Source of the DNA: a virus
Lineage: Duplodnaviria; Caudoviricetes
IMG/VR virus record: IMGVR_UViG_3300036546_000268
Coordinates: 1 to 32,661 of that record
Reading direction: 5' to 3' (one strand)
DNA: 32,661 bases
Shown here: one piece after another, positions 1 through 26,130 of the stretch
Position numbering within the stretch: the first letter of the stretch is position 1
Layout of the letters: the number at the start of each line of letters is the position of its first letter
Notes under the pieces: model-generated
The model's database searches: none
What the model saw: the letters and a program-made list of their open reading frames with translations, nothing else
Told to the model about the DNA's origin: nothing
Program-made: the position numbers and the translations under genes

Positions 1-32
1 TCGGGAGCTGCATGGTTTGAATTACAATTACG

Positions 33-224
33 GGAGAGATGGCGAAATTGGAAGACGCTAATTTGGCAGATGAGGATTAGATGTGTTTTTGATGCAGATA
101 TACAAGTTTCGTAAACAAAAGTGACTGCATACATCTATTGATTAATGTGAAAATTGCTATGTCCCAGAAATGGTGGAAACTAACACATTAAAAATCCATG
201 TGGGTTCGATCCCCACTCTCTCCC
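33..224 (+). ncRNA. tRNA-like RNA with degenerate anticodon arm and ~125-nt structured variable arm
   Basis: Acceptor stem GGAGAGA(33-39)/TCTCTCC(217-223); Leu-type D arm TGGCGAAATTGGAAGACGC; T arm GTGGG-TTCGATC-CCCAC(200-216); insert closed by GGAT(74-77)/ATCC(194-197). Confidence 0.75.
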
Positions 225-227
225 CTA

Positions 228-395: not shown

Positions 396-566
396 TTCTG
401 TGTTGTAAAATGCTTATAGCACAGAAATTCCACTCTGGGATGCATACCAGATATATAAAATCTTTCTGTATAGTGGTGTTAGAAAGATAAAGACCGTGTC
501 TCCTATAGATAGAACATAGACGTTCGGTTATAGACAGGTGAGAAAACTATTCCTGTCGTTTTTTTT
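396..566 (+). ncRNA. Structured pseudoknotted RNA, copy 2 (family unknown), ending in hairpin plus T8
   Basis: Pseudoknot CCACT(430-434)/AGTGG(472-476); identical 17-mer GGTGAGAAAACTATTCC at 366-382 and 537-553. Confidence 0.75.
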
Positions 567-712
567 GACATTCTCTACCCGTAGGGATGTAGTCAAGGCT
601 TTTAAGGTTGTGCCCGAATCAACCTGACTGGATATGGCATGATGTTGTTAGAGAAGTAGCAATCCCGCCATATCTCACCCGCATCTCATTTGTTTGGGTT
701 GCGGGAACAAAT
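565..712 (+). ncRNA. Putative third structured RNA (four consecutive stems)
   Basis: Stems TTGAC..GTCAA, AGGTTG/CAACCT, GATATGGC/GCCATATC, CCCGCA/TGCGGG; no credible ORF. Confidence 0.5.
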
Positions 713-813: not shown

Positions 814-884
814 GCTTCAGTCATATAACGGTATTATACCATTTTTGTAAAATGGTAATCGCAGTTCGACTCTGCGCTGAAGCT
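814..884 (+). tRNA. trnT: tRNA-Thr(TGT), CCA not encoded
   Basis: GCTTCAG/CTGAAGC acceptor; CCATT-TTTGTAA-AATGG anticodon arm (TGT at 846-848); CGCAG-TTCGACT-CTGCG T arm. Confidence 0.9.
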
Positions 885-925
885 CACGTTAAACTAATTA
901 TTAATTTTTTAATAAAAAAAACAAA

Positions 926-5327: not shown

Positions 5328-5541
5328 ATTGCTTTCGATAATATCTGATATAGAAAATGAGTGCAGGCAGGCGCATACAGAGCCTGTCTGTGCCCCTTTC
5401 GTTGAAATAGATAGGAGATGTACGCCAGAGCAGAGAAAGACGCTCAGGGATGATTTAAATGAGCTTTACGCCGAAGGAAAGATACGTGTGTGGCAAGCAA
5501 TTAATGACACGATAATAAAATTAATAGAAAATGGAATTTAA
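5314..5541 (+). CDS. Hypothetical protein, possibly winged-helix
   Basis: ATG at 5314; N-terminus resembles 31705-31899. Confidence 0.7.
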   Translation: MQQDELLSIISDIENECRQAHTEPVCAPFVEIDRRCTPEQRKTLRDDLNELYAEGKIRVWQAINDTIIKLIENGI

Positions 5542-6409
5542 AAAATATCAACACGTTGAGCGGTTAGGAACAGTCGAAACAGATGGAATCGAGAATGGAC
5601 TCTGTTTTGTCTTCCCAAAAATCGACGGAAGTAATTCGCAATTGTGGTGGGATGCTGGATTACACGCTGGAAGCAGAAATCTGCAACTTTCGCATGAAAA
5701 AGATAATGCAGGCTTTTACAACTGGGCAATGGGTCAGGATAAATTTATCCAATTCTTTGCAAAATATCCCAATCTAAGGTTATACGGAGAATGGCTTGTA
5801 CCGCACACCTTGAGGACATATGTTGATTCAGCGTGGAGAAAGTTCTATGTTTTTGACGTTATGGAGGACGGAGAATATCTGCCGTACGAAAAATATAGTG
5901 TCATCCTTGATGAGTTCGGAATTGAATATATCCCACCGATTTGTAAGATTGAAAATCCTACCTATGAGCAGCTTATATCCCAGCTCGAGAAGAATACTTA
6001 TCTTATTGAGGATGGGAAAGGTGTTGGTGAGGGTATAGTCATAAAAAACTATGACTACAGGAACTGCTACGGACGTGTGACGTGGGCGAAAATTGTGCGT
6101 AATGAATTTAAAACACAGCACGGAAAAATTAAAGTTCCCGAGTTGAAGGGTGCGAAAGTAATCGAAGCGGAAATAGTCAATAAGTATGTTACACAAGCAT
6201 TGGTCGAAAAGGAGTTTTCCAAGATTGATAATGAGGTTGGGTGGAGTTCAAAACAGATACCCCGTTTACTAAACACGGTTTATTACTGTTTAGTAAAAGA
6301 AGAGTGTTGGAATTTCGTAAAAGAGTTCAAGAATCCGACTATTGACTTCAAGAAACTTGCAGTTTTTACAAACAACAAAGTTAAAGTGTTTTTGCCACAC
6401 TTATTTTAA
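5531..6409 (+). CDS. ATP-dependent RNA ligase (Rnl2-like)
   Basis: Nucleotidyltransferase motifs KIDGSN, LYGEW, FYVFDV, GEGIVIK, WAKIV. Confidence 0.88.
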   Translation: MEFKKYQHVERLGTVETDGIENGLCFVFPKIDGSNSQLWWDAGLHAGSRNLQLSHEKDNAGFYNWAMGQDKFIQFFAKYPNLRLYGEWLVPHTLRTYVDSAWRKFYVFDVMEDGEYLPYEKYSVILDEFGIEYIPPICKIENPTYEQLISQLEKNTYLIEDGKGVGEGIVIKNYDYRNCYGRVTWAKIVRNEFKTQHGKIKVPELKGAKVIEAEIVNKYVTQALVEKEFSKIDNEVGWSSKQIPRLLNTVYYCLVKEECWNFVKEFKNPTIDFKKLAVFTNNKVKVFLPHLF

Positions 6410-6411
6410 AA

Positions 6412-6858
6412 ATGAAACTAAATCTACTCAATACAACATCTGGACTTATTCCGCTATCGGATGATGATTATGACGAAAAGCATAAGCTAAAGATAGGAGA
6501 AGTATATGAGGCATCTATTGTGCTCAAACGCAATTATAGATTGCACAAACTTTTCTTTGCTTTAATAAATTGTGCTTTTGAGTATCTCAATGAAGAACAA
6601 ACAGAGAGGCTTGGCGGTTACAATCGTATCGGAAAAGAAAATTTCCGCAAAGACATGCTTATCGCAGCAGGTGTAACAACAAGCTACTATTCAGCTGTTG
6701 ATGGAGATTTTCGTGTTGAGGCAAAATCTTTAGCTTTTGACCGGATGGATGACGCCGAGTTTCGCGATGTTTATGATTCCGTTAAGGATGCTATTTTTCG
6801 TACAGTGTTGCGTGGAATAAGTGAAGAGGAATTTAATAAACGATTAATTGGATTTTGA
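6412..6858 (+). CDS. DUF1367/NinB-like protein
   Basis: RNYRLHKLFFAL and KSLAFDRMDDAEF motifs. Confidence 0.75.
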   Translation: MKLNLLNTTSGLIPLSDDDYDEKHKLKIGEVYEASIVLKRNYRLHKLFFALINCAFEYLNEEQTERLGGYNRIGKENFRKDMLIAAGVTTSYYSAVDGDFRVEAKSLAFDRMDDAEFRDVYDSVKDAIFRTVLRGISEEEFNKRLIGF

Positions 6859-6894: not shown

Positions 6895-8001
6895 CTAAGC
6901 AGAATGCAAAGAGCAATACATACTCGATTTTTCAGGTCGGTTTATGGCTACCCCCAGCGTAGCGATATTTATAGCCGCATTAAAATCGGCATCCATATCG
7001 TTTCCGCAGTTTGTACACTTGAAAGACTTGTTTTTTCGAGTGCCAATACAGTGGCAAACGCTGCAAGTCTGGGAAGTGTATGCAGGTTCAACGACAACAA
7101 TCTCAACACCGTTCAGTTTAGCTTTATACTCGATAAAGGAACGCAACTGGTAAAAAGACCAATTTCCAAGTTTTACTCTAAGCTTTTTATTTCTACGTTT
7201 AGAAGTGAACCGAATGTGAGTCAAATCTTCAATTGCAATACCTTTGCCCTGTTGCTTGGCAGACTGAACGAGTTTTTTAGAAATAGTGTGATTGATGATT
7301 GTTGCGGTAGTTTTTTCTTTGCCTTGAAGCCGTTTAGACAATTTCCGGCAATTCCTCTTAGTGGAACGCTTGGAAGTGTCTGCCTTTGCTTGAATAGAAC
7401 TACGAACCTTTTGCCTATGCTCACGGTAATTATTGAGAGTTTCGGCTGTATATTTTTCGCCATCAGAAGTGACAACTATATCTGTGATTCCTGCGTCAAC
7501 GCCAATAAAATCATCGACGTCGATAATATTCTCTTCTGGAACATCAACGATTTGAAAAAGATAGAATTTCCCTTTCTTATAAACCAAATCAGCTTGCCCC
7601 CTGATAAAATGGAAATAAGCAGTGTTATGGCAAATGAAATTGATTTTCTGCCTGCCACCTATACACCACAAAGAGACGACATTATTAGGTTTATATGTCA
7701 TTATGTCATGGTCATAAGTAATAGCACCAAGTGTTTTAAAGACACGTTTTGTTTTCTTATCCAGTTTGTAAGCGTTAGCAACTTTGGAGATTTGTCTTAT
7801 AATCATCTGCGAGGCAAGTTGAAATGTGGCCTTAATCGGATAATAAACTTCGTGGTGCAGTTTGAAATTATTGAAAATCTTTCTTTCCCAAGCCACGTCA
7901 GAAATGGCATTACAAACAGTATTTGCTTCAGTCATTGTTTCGAGAAGCAAATTGGCCTGTTCATCAGTAGGCAAGAGTTTTATTTTCAACGTCAATTTCA
8001 T
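6895..8001 (-). CDS. tnpB: TnpB RNA-guided endonuclease
   Basis: RuvC motifs GVDAG, IEDL, DADFNAAINI; zinc finger TSQTCSVC..FKCTNCG. Confidence 0.95.
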   Translation of the reverse strand: MKLTLKIKLLPTDEQANLLLETMTEANTVCNAISDVAWERKIFNNFKLHHEVYYPIKATFQLASQMIIRQISKVANAYKLDKKTKRVFKTLGAITYDHDIMTYKPNNVVSLWCIGGRQKINFICHNTAYFHFIRGQADLVYKKGKFYLFQIVDVPEENIIDVDDFIGVDAGITDIVVTSDGEKYTAETLNNYREHRQKVRSSIQAKADTSKRSTKRNCRKLSKRLQGKEKTTATIINHTISKKLVQSAKQQGKGIAIEDLTHIRFTSKRRNKKLRVKLGNWSFYQLRSFIEYKAKLNGVEIVVVEPAYTSQTCSVCHCIGTRKNKSFKCTNCGNDMDADFNAAINIATLGVAINRPEKSSMYCSLHSA

Positions 8002-11919: not shown

Positions 11920-12108
11920 ATGAATGAATATTTTTTACCAAACGATGTTGCTCGGTGTGAAAACGAGAGCTGTGATAAGAATGTCAAGTGTTCGAGATTT
12001 CTGGATGTTCTCCCGATGGAGAATTATACGTTTATTAAATTCAAAGCCGAAAATTGCGATTTTTTTATTGAAAAACAGAATATTAAACCTAAAAAAGAAA
12101 AGAAATGA
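11920..12108 (+). CDS. Small Cys-rich protein
   Basis: DVARC..C....C.R...C pattern; overlaps next start. Confidence 0.7.
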   Translation: MNEYFLPNDVARCENESCDKNVKCSRFLDVLPMENYTFIKFKAENCDFFIEKQNIKPKKEKK

Positions 12109-13244
12109 CAGATTTTAAAATTGGGAATAAAGTAAAGCTAAAAGACGGATTCAACCCGGAGGAACATAGGGAAGATAATAATCCGTTTGTTCAAGAGATG
12201 GATAAATACATTGGGACTACATTCTTTGTTGAGAAAATTGATGAGGACTACATAATCAGCGACGTTTGGCATTTTTATAAAGATTGGATTGAGATTGTTC
12301 CTAATCAAGATTCAAAAGAAGATGACGGTCAAGAAGAAAGTGTTTGCCTTGATGCGCGTCAGGACGAAAAGGCAAATCCAATATCCGGACTCCTTTCTTT
12401 CAATGGAGAGCTCAAAGCCGACGAAGTGATGAATCAAAGCACGATTCAAAAAGGAGACGCCTTGCGCTATGACAAAGGGAAGACTCAATTAGACCTTATA
12501 CCGCCGTTCGTTATAGAGCAACTTGGTAAGGTTCTTACTTTTGGGGCAGAGAAGTATGATAAAGATAATTATCGCAAAGGCATGAAGTGGAGCAAGGTCA
12601 TAGGTTCTTTAATGCGGCATATCAATGCGTTTAGGGCTGGTGAAGATTTTGACAAAGAAACGGGCATCTATCATATCGCGCATGCTATGTGCAACCTTAC
12701 GTTCCTGCTTGAATATTATCGTATTTACCCGCAAGGTGATGACAGGGTTCAAAAATATCTTGAAATGCCAACCGTTGGACTGGATATAGACGATGTGCTT
12801 GCAGATACTGTCAATTATTGGTGTAAATATCATCAATGCGATATCCCTGCATGGTGGCATGATTCAAACTTTAAGAAAGAGAGGTTTGATGCTCTCAATA
12901 ACAATAAAGATTTTTGGCTGAATATACCACCTAAAATAAAGCCGGAAGACCTTAACTTTGAACCTGTATGTTATGTGACGTCACGCTCTATACCGCAAGA
13001 GTGGACAAGAGAATGGCTTATAAAGAACGGATTTCCGGATGTAACGCTTATTTCTGTAGGTTACGGAAAAAGTAAGGTAGATGCTCTAAGGGGCATGTGC
13101 GACATATTCATTGATGACAGATTTGACAACTTTGTAGAGTTAAACCGGAATGGCATTTGCTGTTACCTCATGGATGCTCCTCACAATAAGAGATACGACG
13201 TTGGATATAAAAGGATTACGAACATTAAAGAATTTTTGAGATGA
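12105..13244 (+). CDS. Fusion: SH3-like domain + dATP/dGTP diphosphohydrolase (DUF5664) + HAD 5'(3')-nucleotidase
   Basis: RYDKGK, GAEKY..DNYRKG, SLMRH, ETGIYHIAHA; LDIDDVL, VTSR, FIDD. Confidence 0.85.
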   Translation: MTDFKIGNKVKLKDGFNPEEHREDNNPFVQEMDKYIGTTFFVEKIDEDYIISDVWHFYKDWIEIVPNQDSKEDDGQEESVCLDARQDEKANPISGLLSFNGELKADEVMNQSTIQKGDALRYDKGKTQLDLIPPFVIEQLGKVLTFGAEKYDKDNYRKGMKWSKVIGSLMRHINAFRAGEDFDKETGIYHIAHAMCNLTFLLEYYRIYPQGDDRVQKYLEMPTVGLDIDDVLADTVNYWCKYHQCDIPAWWHDSNFKKERFDALNNNKDFWLNIPPKIKPEDLNFEPVCYVTSRSIPQEWTREWLIKNGFPDVTLISVGYGKSKVDALRGMCDIFIDDRFDNFVELNRNGICCYLMDAPHNKRYDVGYKRITNIKEFLR

Positions 13245-24094: not shown

Positions 24095-24454
24095 TTAAAT
24101 TGTGTTTTGAATGTAGTTTTGTGTTGCATCACGGAAAAACGAAAACATCTTATTTGCAATGATATTATAAATGTTCCTCATTTCTCCAAACAACCGGTTA
24201 TTGTTATAATCGTAAACATTCCACCCATTATCGAAGTCAGGATAAATTTCCCTGATTCTTTTTGCGTACTCCGCCGGGTAGGCAGTATCAATTTTGCTTT
24301 GATCCATTTCCGGTGCAAAGATGTTCAAAAGTTCGCGGGTGCTGATAATGTTTTCCAAGTTAAAAAGATTATCCATGAAATCTATTTCCTCCTCATTCAT
24401 GTTTTCAATAATCGAAATTAAAAACTCTCTTTTTTCATCAGTTGTTGTTTTCAT
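24095..24454 (-). CDS. Hypothetical protein, first gene of the leftward module
   Basis: MKT start downstream of a promoter. Confidence 0.75.
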   Translation of the reverse strand: MKTTTDEKREFLISIIENMNEEEIDFMDNLFNLENIISTRELLNIFAPEMDQSKIDTAYPAEYAKRIREIYPDFDNGWNVYDYNNNRLFGEMRNIYNIIANKMFSFFRDATQNYIQNTI

Positions 24455-24496
24455 CGTTCTTTGTTTTTTAATTGTTTGTTGTTTCTTTAAACACTA

Positions 24497-24528
24497 TAAA
24501 GATACGAAAATCATTTGTACCACACAAA
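24497..24528 (-). promoter_or_regulatory. Bacteroidota promoter of the leftward module
   Basis: TTTG-N20-TATCTTTA. Confidence 0.65.
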
Positions 24529-24662
24529 TAAACACAAGTTTTTTGCGTTAAAAAATAGCCTATTTCGTTAACAAAACGAACATAACAAGTTAAACATTCT
24601 AAAAAATTGTAACAGAAAAAAAAGAGAAAAAAGTAACAAAAAAGAGAAAAACAGTGTTATAA

Positions 24663-24701
24663 AACTATGTTTAAAAAGTATGTTTAAGAAGTATGTTATA
24701 T
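24663..24701. repeat. Three AT-rich 13-mers
   Basis: AACTATGTTTAAA / AAGTATGTTTAAG / AAGTATGTTATAT. Confidence 0.7.
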
Positions 24702-24730
24702 AACATATATATGTAACCCTGCTAAACGTT

Positions 24731-24863
24731 ATACGAAATTTAAATAGTCCTACGAAATGTTCGTAGAAATACGAAATTTAAATAGTGATACGAAATATAA
24801 ATAACATTATGAAAATCCCATAATATTACGAAATGTTCGTAGCAATACGAAGTTTTAGTAACC
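24731..24863. repeat. Seven 19-bp tandem units with TACGAA core
   Basis: TACGAA at 24732, 24751, 24770, 24789, (TATGAA 24808), 24827, 24846. Confidence 0.85.
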
Positions 24864-25563
24864 GTCTCTGTTCGTAATTTACCGAACATTAAAATTTGTT
24901 AAAATCTGAGCTTAAATTATACCTATAACTTAAGTAACCGGCTATCTTCACCCGCGACGAGAACAACATTAATAAGCTGACATCCTGGAACGTAGGGTAG
25001 CACCCCCTTTTGGATAATCAGAACGGGTATCATCTATCCCCCATAAAATTTTTCCAATTTTTTCCAAAATATTCCGTTATTTTCACTGTTATGAATAGCC
25101 TTTATGGTATAAAAAGTGTGGAATATACACGGATAAGGGCTGTTGTTTGGGTATTATTTTTATTGTTGGTGTAATCATATACGTTTTAATACCCGTGTCG
25201 CTTATTTCCCTTGCCTCTGTTGAACTTTTGCTATTGTTCCTATACGGATATACATTAGAGGTTAGAAAGTGTCTTAAATCGCCTTAAAATGGATTGTTTT
25301 ACATATGGTGTCTTTTCGGCTATAAAATCATCGTTAAGGAGTGTCATATTTGTGGATTAGTTTAAATATTTTAGTACGGTTGCAATTATATTGCCGCTAC
25401 GCTTATTTTTTTAAGCAAATAATTAAGATTTAGGATAGAGTAAAAACATTAGTATAATATTTTAAAGTAACAAATGATGATGATCTATGATATAATAGGA
25501 ATTTACTCTGTTTTTCGACATTCAAACGCTTTCCACACGCCTGTTTGTGTAATTTAAGTGGTA

Positions 25564-25659
25564 GTCATATGAAAAGTCAGTTTGACTGTCATATAAGAAG
25601 TCAGTTTGACTGTCATATAGAAAGTCAGTTTGATAGTCATATAAGATGACAGTTTCATA
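25564..25659. repeat. Four 24-bp iteron-like tandem repeats
   Basis: GTCATATnnnAAGTCAGTTTGACT-like unit x4 (fourth degenerate). Confidence 0.9.
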
Positions 25660-25684
25660 AAAAAGCATAATAATTCTAAATTCA

Positions 25685-25716
25685 CTTGCGCAATTCAAAT
25701 ATTATATGTATATTTG
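25685..25716 (+). promoter_or_regulatory. Bacteroidota promoter of the RepL-like genes
   Basis: CTTG-N20-TATATTTG. Confidence 0.7.
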
Positions 25717-25737
25717 TGCCATAATTATGAATAAAAT

Positions 25738-26130
25738 ATGCGAAAGCTTATTATAGTGGATAGAGATACTGGTGAAATAATCGATGATGGAAAATCTGTA
25801 AAATATAGCTGTTTTGTTCATACAGGCGGCATTGATTGGACGTCTATCGTAAATTTTAATCAATTAAAAGCGATGCATTTTATGGCGTGGAAAATGAATA
25901 ATGATGGAAGCATTCATCTTGTTGGTAAAAAGAAACAGGAATTAATGGAATATCTTGGGGTTGCCGAGCGGCAATATAACAGGATATTAAAGCAAATGAT
26001 GAGGCTTGATCTTATTCGAAGAATTTCTAATGGGGAGTATATGGTTAATCCATCTATTGTCTTCAGAGGCTCATCAAATAGGCTAAATTATTTTATAGAG
26101 AAATATAGTGAACAAAAACATCAAAAATAG
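25738..26130 (+). CDS. RepL-like winged-helix protein
   Basis: VDRDTGEI N-terminus; HTH; LIRRISNGEYMVNPSIVFRG. Confidence 0.7.
   Translation: MRKLIIVDRDTGEIIDDGKSVKYSCFVHTGGIDWTSIVNFNQLKAMHFMAWKMNNDGSIHLVGKKKQELMEYLGVAERQYNRILKQMMRLDLIRRISNGEYMVNPSIVFRGSSNRLNYFIEKYSEQKHQK

Follow-up and report, generated by a model that had tools for sequence, protein, structure and literature searches.

The window is the whole viral contig analysed (32.7 kb; 32,661 nt). It contains 129 ORFs, 29 of which were scanned against PHROGs; matches were obtained to Erf, a RecE-like exonuclease, an RNA ligase (E 1.6e-43), NinB, a primase/helicase, a methyltransferase, a resolvase and an integrase. The RNA ligase gene spans positions 5531-6409, and the protein encoded at 12105-13244 features a weak polynucleotide-kinase match (E 5e-6); taken together, the two matches suggest some capacity for RNA repair. 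A transposase-like gene (6895-8001, minus strand) is inserted with an orientation contrary to that of the replication operon. The long non-coding region separating divergent gene blocks at 24454-25738, marked by repeats of an ACGAAAT motif and, near its right end, by short tandem repeats, is possibly an origin or control region. The similar gene order of a Petrimonas prophage points to a host belonging to the Bacteroidales.

The element described here (32-227, plus strand) heads a non-coding stretch closed by a tRNA-Thr(UGU) gene (814-885, plus strand), recognised by ARAGORN and by the Rfam model and missed when the entire window was scanned at Rfam gathering thresholds, an insensitive search. 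As the element begins 31 nt from the contig end, its promoter lies outside view. Two tandem structured non-coding modules of ~171 nt (225-395 and 396-570, plus strand; fold z -4.27 together) start at its 3' end. They have in common a hairpin on the 5' side, in which changes are compensatory, and a conserved one on the 3' side, and homologues were found at L101/L515 (first module 74% identical) and L520, partial ones at L513, L518, L521 and L523. The modules (225-570) have no Rfam match, and look like an uncatalogued phage RNA family.

Among the 77 loci retrieved by an Erf search, only the closest phage, L001 (Erf 87% identical), shares the cassette region; positions 618-950 are 95% identical, and the element is missing. 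At the corresponding place L001 carries a tRNA-Met(CAU)-like gene that is degenerate and whose D arm is truncated (L001:4998-5065). The non-coding interval 618-813, 93% identical to L001, contains two hairpins. One of them (676-711) recurs beside members of the class described below in L096, L272, L108 and L347; window bases 660-676 are 82% complementary to bases 34-50 of the element.

Anatomy of the element

Read from its 5' end, the element is made, all on the plus strand, by G32 in position -1 and the acceptor 5' strand 33-39 (32-39; sequence, fold, Rfam alignment); residues U8-G9 and a Leu-type D arm with a 3-pair stem (40-58; Rfam alignment, tRNA-Leu parse); a 15-nt linker with no canonical stem-loop, which replaces the anticodon arm (59-73; class linker profile); a 124-nt domain in the variable-arm position (74-197; fold), closed by the helix 74-77/194-197, with arms predicted at 78-137 and 142-191; two unpaired bases 5' of the T stem (198-199); a T arm with a 5-pair stem and a 7-nt loop (200-216; fold, Rfam alignment); and the acceptor 3' strand 217-223, followed by C224 in position 73 and by CTA, CCA not being encoded (217-227; sequence). 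The acceptor strands form seven Watson-Crick pairs, to which G32:C224 is additional, and all pairs are intact (8 acceptor, 3 D, 5 T). Residues typical of tRNA-Leu are in place, namely A15 (A47), its partner U48 (T199), G18-G19 (G50-G51) and A20a (A53).

An earlier reading of the same DNA, made from sequence only, had described intact acceptor, D and T arms, a Leu-like D loop, and about 14 nt (60-73) where an anticodon arm belongs. All this was borne out: every stem closes, the pattern running from the D arm to the T loop has a single match in the window and none in 100 shuffles, and the D arm is that of the 34 ordinary tRNA-Leu genes parsed. No canonical anticodon arm, as the 5-pair stem and 7-nt loop of tRNA-Leu, is found at 60-73, and the region between the D and T arms (the middle) measures 141 nt, versus 23-35 nt in ordinary tRNA-Leu. 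The element cannot decode, and is a non-decoding scaffold with the shape of a tRNA. There is no need to call its acceptor Ser-like, as done in the sequence-only reading: GGAGAGG is also the start of ordinary tRNA-Leu genes whose anticodons are GAG and CAA (L094, L098, L112).

The tRNA scaffold is real. The Rfam tRNA model aligned end to end around the long insertion (23.7 bits, E 0.025; cut-off 29), and the fold of the whole element (z -2.74) was equalled by 1 of 200 shuffles. The element was not called by ARAGORN at default settings. By itself the 141-nt middle has a z of +0.12, 265 of 500 shuffles folding equally well; in helix content 72 or 85 of 1000 shuffles did as well, depending on the measure, and its helices have pair probabilities of 0.34-0.84 (about 0.7 for the closing helix 74-77/194-197). 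Because the middle is no more stable than shuffles, the branched fold, as opposed to the scaffold, is only predicted. The junction of long helices proposed earlier is there in that its three helices can be placed (78-84/131-137, 92-97/125-130, 142-149/184-191), in a fold that does not surpass those of shuffled sequences.

It is barely conceivable that the insert, too short for a group I intron according to the sequence-only reading, is an intron whose removal yields a working tRNA. The phage has an RNA ligase, and ARAGORN with the relaxed settings proposed earlier calls a tRNA-Val(AAC) with a 116-nt intron; this call is weightless, because the program in intron mode also reports a tRNA when the middle is shuffled (291-300 of 300 controls). 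No single deletion of at least 60 nt creates a canonical anticodon arm, while 8 of 300 shuffles allow one, and no intron family is matched.

Anticodon-less tRNA-Leu scaffolds in phages

The element is very probably a member of a large phage class of tRNA-Leu scaffolds devoid of an anticodon. A scan for a GGAGAG acceptor joined to a Leu-type D arm identified 23 viral loci: 13 carry the same closed scaffold around unrelated middles, 5 are ordinary tRNA-Leu genes, and 5 do not close. In the loci fetched, 245 of 279 Leu-type D arms close an acceptor (at least 6 of 7 pairs). Unique genes (209) have been sorted into 170 class members, 34 ordinary tRNA-Leu, 4 tRNA-Leu(UAA) with loop inserts, and 1 short gene; a canonical anticodon arm was found in only 1 of the 170 long-middle class members. 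Two length-bounded IMG/VR scans returned at least 114 and at least 117 stretches, from which totals near 1,300 and 900 were estimated, the second range including some tandem tRNAs; the class may thus count up to about 2,200 IMG/VR stretches, some tandem tRNAs included.

The tRNA-Leu(UAA) genes of L082/L085 (1501-1696, minus strand), L224, L231 and L315 have anticodon-loop inserts of 40-70 nt. Those of L082, L231 and L315 end with ACC(A) and resemble a nested mini-tRNA, with a T loop in L315; such inserts might be excised by tRNA-processing enzymes. L082 also bears a ROOL RNA.

By blastn clustering the 170 members form 143 insert families; 7 with an inner T loop were removed, leaving 136 representatives. 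Acceptor pairing was a selection criterion for these; U48, A73, C74 and U-1 lie outside the search pattern and are conserved. U48 is present in 135 of the 136, C74 in 110, and CCA is encoded in 9; U-1 is found in 85 (62%) versus 213/680 (31%) immediately upstream. Position 73 is A in 105 representatives, G in 14, U in 10 and C in 7, so that 31 feature no A73. The representatives have 75 different acceptor strands. Acceptor-branch lengths vary (7/5, 8/5, 7/6 and longer), and inserts measure from 41 to 175 nt across the class.

In 22.8% of the 136 representatives a helix with 6 or more pairs terminates precisely 2 nt 5' of the T stem, versus 9.0 +/- 2.3% of shuffles. When 184 representatives were considered, the 5' strand of the closing helix began 8-19 nt past the D arm in half of the confident cases (52 of 104), versus 9.4 of ~72 in shuffles; the offset in the window, 15, falls within this range. 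Such profiles depict the typical member as a class II tRNA in which a linker is what is left of the anticodon arm, and the variable arm is enlarged to a domain. Features shared by the window's element with the class are a Leu-type D arm and a T arm in tRNA order, a closed acceptor of at least 7 pairs, a middle longer than 40 nt with no anticodon arm, U48, a helix ending 2 nt 5' of the T stem (74-77/194-197), and location in a non-coding or tRNA cluster of a phage. Middles of at least 141 nt are found in only 4 of the 184 representatives, long ones being under-sampled by the scans, and the copy in the window has one of the longest inserts of the class.

Some members form a sub-type whose T stem has 6 pairs and whose acceptor has 7-9 (acceptor branch of 13-15 pairs); its T loop is often a variant one. 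The sub-type accounts for 13 of the 136 representatives and 38 of 59 families in a sample selected for G-1 (see below), and includes L229, L253, L359, L375, L390 and the SPP1 member (L357, D arm at 6654).

Class members are known from T5, SPP1 and cultured Bacteroides, Lactiplantibacillus and Leuconostoc phages; they reside in phages BF1-TP2, Gut-P1 and phiLM33_01, and in SPP1 between genes 9 and 11. The BF1-TP2 member (L349:1506-1621; PQ571263.1) lies under an annotated hypothetical CDS, gp8, and that of SPP1 (L357, near 6650-6760; NC_004166.2) partly under gene 10, on the opposite strand; the overlapping hypothetical CDSs may be spurious. Among 170 genomes of the Petrimonas family, a likely host family, the 55-85 gap pattern was found in a single one, and is therefore not that of a core cellular gene. 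Members in 20 and 13 loci tested against Rfam gave only generic tRNA matches. No account of the class was met in the literature searched, which covers older T5/T4 papers scarcely; the sections consulted of PMC10690425 and PMC8040213 deal with tRNA-like candidates or tRNA screening and do not describe this architecture, and models of some class sub-families may be among the 10,006 candidate viral RNAs of the former. One class member has a GenBank annotation; as a family the class is undescribed. Added here are the geometry of linker and variable domain, the covariation of G-1 with N73 and its explanation by an eighth acceptor pair, and a copy departed from Leu identity.

Unique middles (247) fall into 204 families. 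In the 25 families with multiple members, 38 pairs are compensatory, 31 one-sided, 14 broken and 398 invariant, as counted on structures predicted on those same alignments with no shuffle control. Class inserts are modestly structured, i.e. slightly more stable than shuffles (mean z -0.68, 14/136 below -2; downstream control -0.37, 12/133), and by their sequence comparisons they look selected. A single acceptor strand may be found with up to 32 unrelated insert families (8 for the acceptor of the window), and 13 of the 25 multi-member families are associated with more than one acceptor; this suggests that chassis and cargo are exchanged. Locus L101/L515 carries the same scaffold (33-69, 86% identical) and the same downstream module, with a 55-nt middle, and in the Petrimonas prophage the same scaffold, upstream of Erf and RecE, hosts a different insert. 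Homologues displaying an ordinary tRNA with a recent, unconserved insertion, named earlier as the finding that would speak against a tRNA-shaped scaffold, are not what was encountered in the class, made by at least 143 insert families with covariation within sub-families.

The insert of the window is a singleton, and no homologue was identified in collections that may lack the records nearest to this genome. A blastn search of 50,697 phage records gave arm-sized matches only, and one against all 523 loci collected gave no homologue of the insert. The exact 5' pattern had 0 matches in IMG/VR; a two-ended pattern had 0 matches in metagenomes and 13 loci in IMG/VR, set aside as mostly tandem tRNAs. 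The G-1 plus GGAGAG pattern identified 5 metagenomic loci, all with other inserts, and a scan for the downstream modules 11 loci, none with a homologue of the insert; in 170 Petrimonas-family genomes the best match measures 23 nt, and was taken as chance. The search for homologues and covariation, proposed with the sequence-only reading, thus revealed covariation in other sub-families of the class and no relatives of this insert.

The same data bear on the possibility that this copy is decaying, or is a dead tRNA-Leu hit by a random insertion, functionless now. Its singleton insert, a fold no better than shuffles, the loss of A73, the absence from L001, and closing-helix surroundings faintly resembling a Leu(UAA) anticodon arm would all agree with decay. 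Still, no pair is lost from the acceptor (8), D (3) or T (5) stems, U48 is kept, the architecture is that of the class, and known decayed members, as L091/L345 with an unclosed acceptor, look different; decay is judged improbable.

Rather unlikely, if less so, is a second alternative, in which the tRNA body is mainly a cutting signal, through which RNase P and a 3' nuclease would set the ends of neighbouring RNAs, the insert being of minor importance. It would account for a structured module beginning exactly at the 3' end of the element (225), for the conservation of U-1 and C74 with CCA seldom encoded, and for the variable lengths of acceptor branch and insert (41-175 nt). However, inserts are conserved and covary in sub-families despite changes of the acceptor, the same module lies ~200 nt away from the element in L101, and a cutting signal needs neither A73 nor a Leu-type variable-arm geometry.

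Phage C4 RNA is a tRNA-shaped antisense regulator. A similar function here, the insert pairing with phage or host mRNAs, would be compatible with an RNase P-type body and exposed loops. Yet, in comparisons covering the window and the SPP1 genome, 8- to 12-mer matches are not in excess, whether those of the insert to other parts of the window or those of the SPP1 member to the whole SPP1 genome (all p at least 0.17), and no Rfam match was obtained; antisense regulation is considered very improbable.

The acceptor end and its identity

Leucine identity in E. coli is made by A73, A15:U48, G18-G19 and A20a; tRNA-Leu deprived of anticodon and variable arms is still charged, an ability abolished by the change of A73 to C73. 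SerRS requires G73, as listed in an identity table, and HisRS charges G-1:C73 minihelices (all from the consulted part of PMC9976931). Precursors with G-1:C73 are cut by RNase P one base upstream (PMC12439589, in part).

Judged from these identity elements, most class members fit Leu identity. A73 is found in 34 of 34 ordinary tRNA-Leu; the discriminator of the window's copy is C224, or C225 if 8 acceptor pairs are counted. Since it is C rather than A, charging by LeuRS is unlikely, as is charging by SerRS: the long variable arm is not joined to G73. The tRNA-His pair G-1:C73 is present (G32, C224), with neither a GUG anticodon nor an anticodon loop. The proposal, made earlier, of a chargeable RNA is weakened for Ser and Leu; histidylation of this copy is possible, if rather unlikely.

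The association of G-1 with C73 extends beyond the window. In the first sample G-1 accompanies C73 in 4 of 7 members, versus 1 of 129 of the others (p 1.3e-5; 2e-4 excluding the window). An independent G-1 scan retrieved 116 loci and 117 matches, 91 of them closed, which make 59 long-middle families. In these N73 is mostly C (36 families), the others having U (13), A (9) or G (1); C73 thus marks 36/59 families with G-1 and 3/131 without it (p 1e-19). Sixteen members combine G-1:C73 with a 5-pair T stem; the base that follows is A for 10 of them, and U or C for 3 each. As the next base is mostly A, in most cases G-1:C73 extends the acceptor to eight pairs and a Leu-type A comes after it, and a His subclass was discarded on the basis of this independent sample. 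The window's copy belongs to the minority with C in that place; it is either His-type, or an 8-pair member minus its A. The His element seen earlier in G32:C224 is therefore present as a pair, His identity being only possible.

The acceptor end may be what matters: the RNA would be aminoacylated, mostly with Leu and here with His, for a non-decoding use: it might sequester EF-Tu or a synthetase, serve a transferase as donor, or signal to starvation sensors. A73 in 105 of 136 representatives, the retention of A15:U48, G18-G19 and A20a, the charging by LeuRS of anticodon-less tRNA-Leu and by HisRS of G-1:C73 minihelices (PMC9976931, same extract), the link of G-1 with C73, and the next base C in the window, as a His-type end needs, would fit. 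But 31 of 136 members have no A73, the eighth-pair pattern (A in 10/16, C in 3/16) prevails at G-1:C73 ends, and conserved inserts are left unexplained, which makes this use of the acceptor unlikely, and a little more so than that of a cutting signal.

Known counterparts and putative role

A close counterpart is RNA1 of phage T5 (AY543070.1, 30501-30644), annotated as 'tRNA-like stable RNA with unknown functions' and found also in BF23. It shares with the element a Leu-type D arm, a closed acceptor, a T arm, a helix ending 2 nt 5' of the T stem, and a long middle (80 nt) with no anticodon loop. In T5 RNA1, however, the extra domain prolongs the helix in the anticodon position, and an ordinary variable hairpin remains, whereas the window features a 15-nt linker for the anticodon arm and a domain in the variable-arm position; T5 RNA1 has U73 and no G-1, and its insert has no sequence similarity to that of the window. 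With its domain on the anticodon-position helix, it represents a different sub-type. Matches to T5 RNA1 were obtained in 487 phage records, and in 424 of these they cover 80% or more of the RNA. In an alignment of T5 with 11 sequences chosen among the 40 matches listed, 11 of 38 pairs are compensatory, 7 of these in the insert (12 sequences). T5 RNA1 has no Rfam match.

Bacterial class II tRNA-Leu (RF00005) has in common with the element the D arm, A15:U48, G18-G19, A20a, the T arm and two unpaired bases after the variable helix, but keeps the anticodon arm, a middle of 23-35 nt (141 in the window) and A73 (34/34; C73 in the window). T4 species 1 RNA (rnaC) and species 2 RNA (rnaD) are small stable RNAs of the tRNA cluster; rnaC has a T arm, and both lack a Leu-type D arm. 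In tmRNA an acceptor and a T arm are joined, with no anticodon arm, to a large domain which departs from the variable-arm position. This layout resembles that of the element, which differs because of its D stem and the lack of G3:U70, and is not called tmRNA by either ARAGORN or Rfam, as anticipated by the sequence-only reading; many class inserts are too short for a tmRNA tag frame.

T4 RNAC and RNAD are reported as late RNAs of unknown function (PMC9697503, in part). YrlA (PMC4201824, in part) is a phage-borne, non-decoding module with tRNA-like D, T and acceptor parts, and some YrlA RNAs are cut by RNase P and receive CCA. It is permuted, T preceding D, has a loop-closed acceptor and adjoins Ro60, whereas the element follows the tRNA order; no Ro60/TROVE gene was found among the 29 of 129 ORFs scanned, in a contig which begins 31 nt upstream of the element. 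Allo-tRNAs, as described in the parts consulted of PMC5389517 and PMC7609411, have 8/4 or 9/3 branches and an anticodon arm. Non-canonical acceptor length, G-1 in some, and residence in mobile DNA make them similar to the element, which differs in its 7/5 branch with G-1 (or 8/5), its 5-pair T stem and the lack of an anticodon arm. tmRNA, YrlA, allo-tRNAs and intron-containing tRNAs were each discarded on at least one defining feature.

In engineered tRNA scaffolds an inserted foreign RNA is protected, and host factors recognise the whole (PMC3753655, in part). They keep acceptor, D and T arms as the element does, and differ in being artificial and in carrying the insertion in the anticodon stem-loop. 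By analogy the element most likely works in the same way, and its maturation into a stable RNA is probable. Transcribed inside the non-coding cassette of the phage, it would be matured by RNase P, 3' nucleases and the CCA-adding enzyme of the host, as reported in the parts consulted on engineered scaffolds and on M. smegmatis YrlA, with cleavage 5' of G32, as in G-1:C73 precursors. In the resulting stable, non-decoding RNA the extra domain would be both shielded and presented by the tRNA body, and would most likely act as a decoy for a host protein. A fixed chassis combined with hundreds of folded, exchangeable domains makes display the best use. The partner is the least certain step; the best candidates are defence nucleases or sensors by which class II tRNAs are read at their elbow and variable arm, since enzymes of this sort exist and inserts are diverse in a way that resembles an arms race. 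The decoy for anticodon nucleases suggested by the sequence-only reading is unlikely, as there is no anticodon loop to cut. In the escape from retron-Eco7, the rescuing T5-like tRNA-Tyr is inactive once its anticodon is changed (PMC11555353, in part), which for that system favours supplementation over a decoy.

The model of a chassis displaying a decoy, taken as a whole, is held with about even confidence. The anatomy, class membership, conserved elbow and processing bases, and the covariation of inserts within sub-families are shown and support it; the RNA ligase encoded by the phage also counts in its favour. Counting against it are the insert of the window, with no homologue and no stabler than shuffles, the loss of A73, the absence from L001, the modest structure of class inserts and the 14 broken pairs. 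A broader proposal, more tentative and less probable than the model itself, is that of a natural system run by phages of many bacterial groups, in which a fixed tRNA-Leu body, matured by host enzymes, would display hundreds of exchangeable folded domains against proteins of host defence or translation surveillance; its acceptor end would be tunable, and in the window's copy would have switched from the Leu signal (A73) to a His-type end (G-1:C73).

Annotation tools miss or mislabel the class, i.e. up to about 2,200 viral stretches. Members reside in T5 and SPP1, so that the role of phage 'tRNA-like stable RNAs' is directly testable, and the copy in the window is a natural identity variant, useful for probing the relevance of aminoacylation. 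If chassis plus cargo is the correct description, the class would be a naturally occurring collection of RNA domains that selection has directed against host proteins; the display system, if real, would be counter-defence by RNA of a new kind, and account for the stable RNAs of T5.
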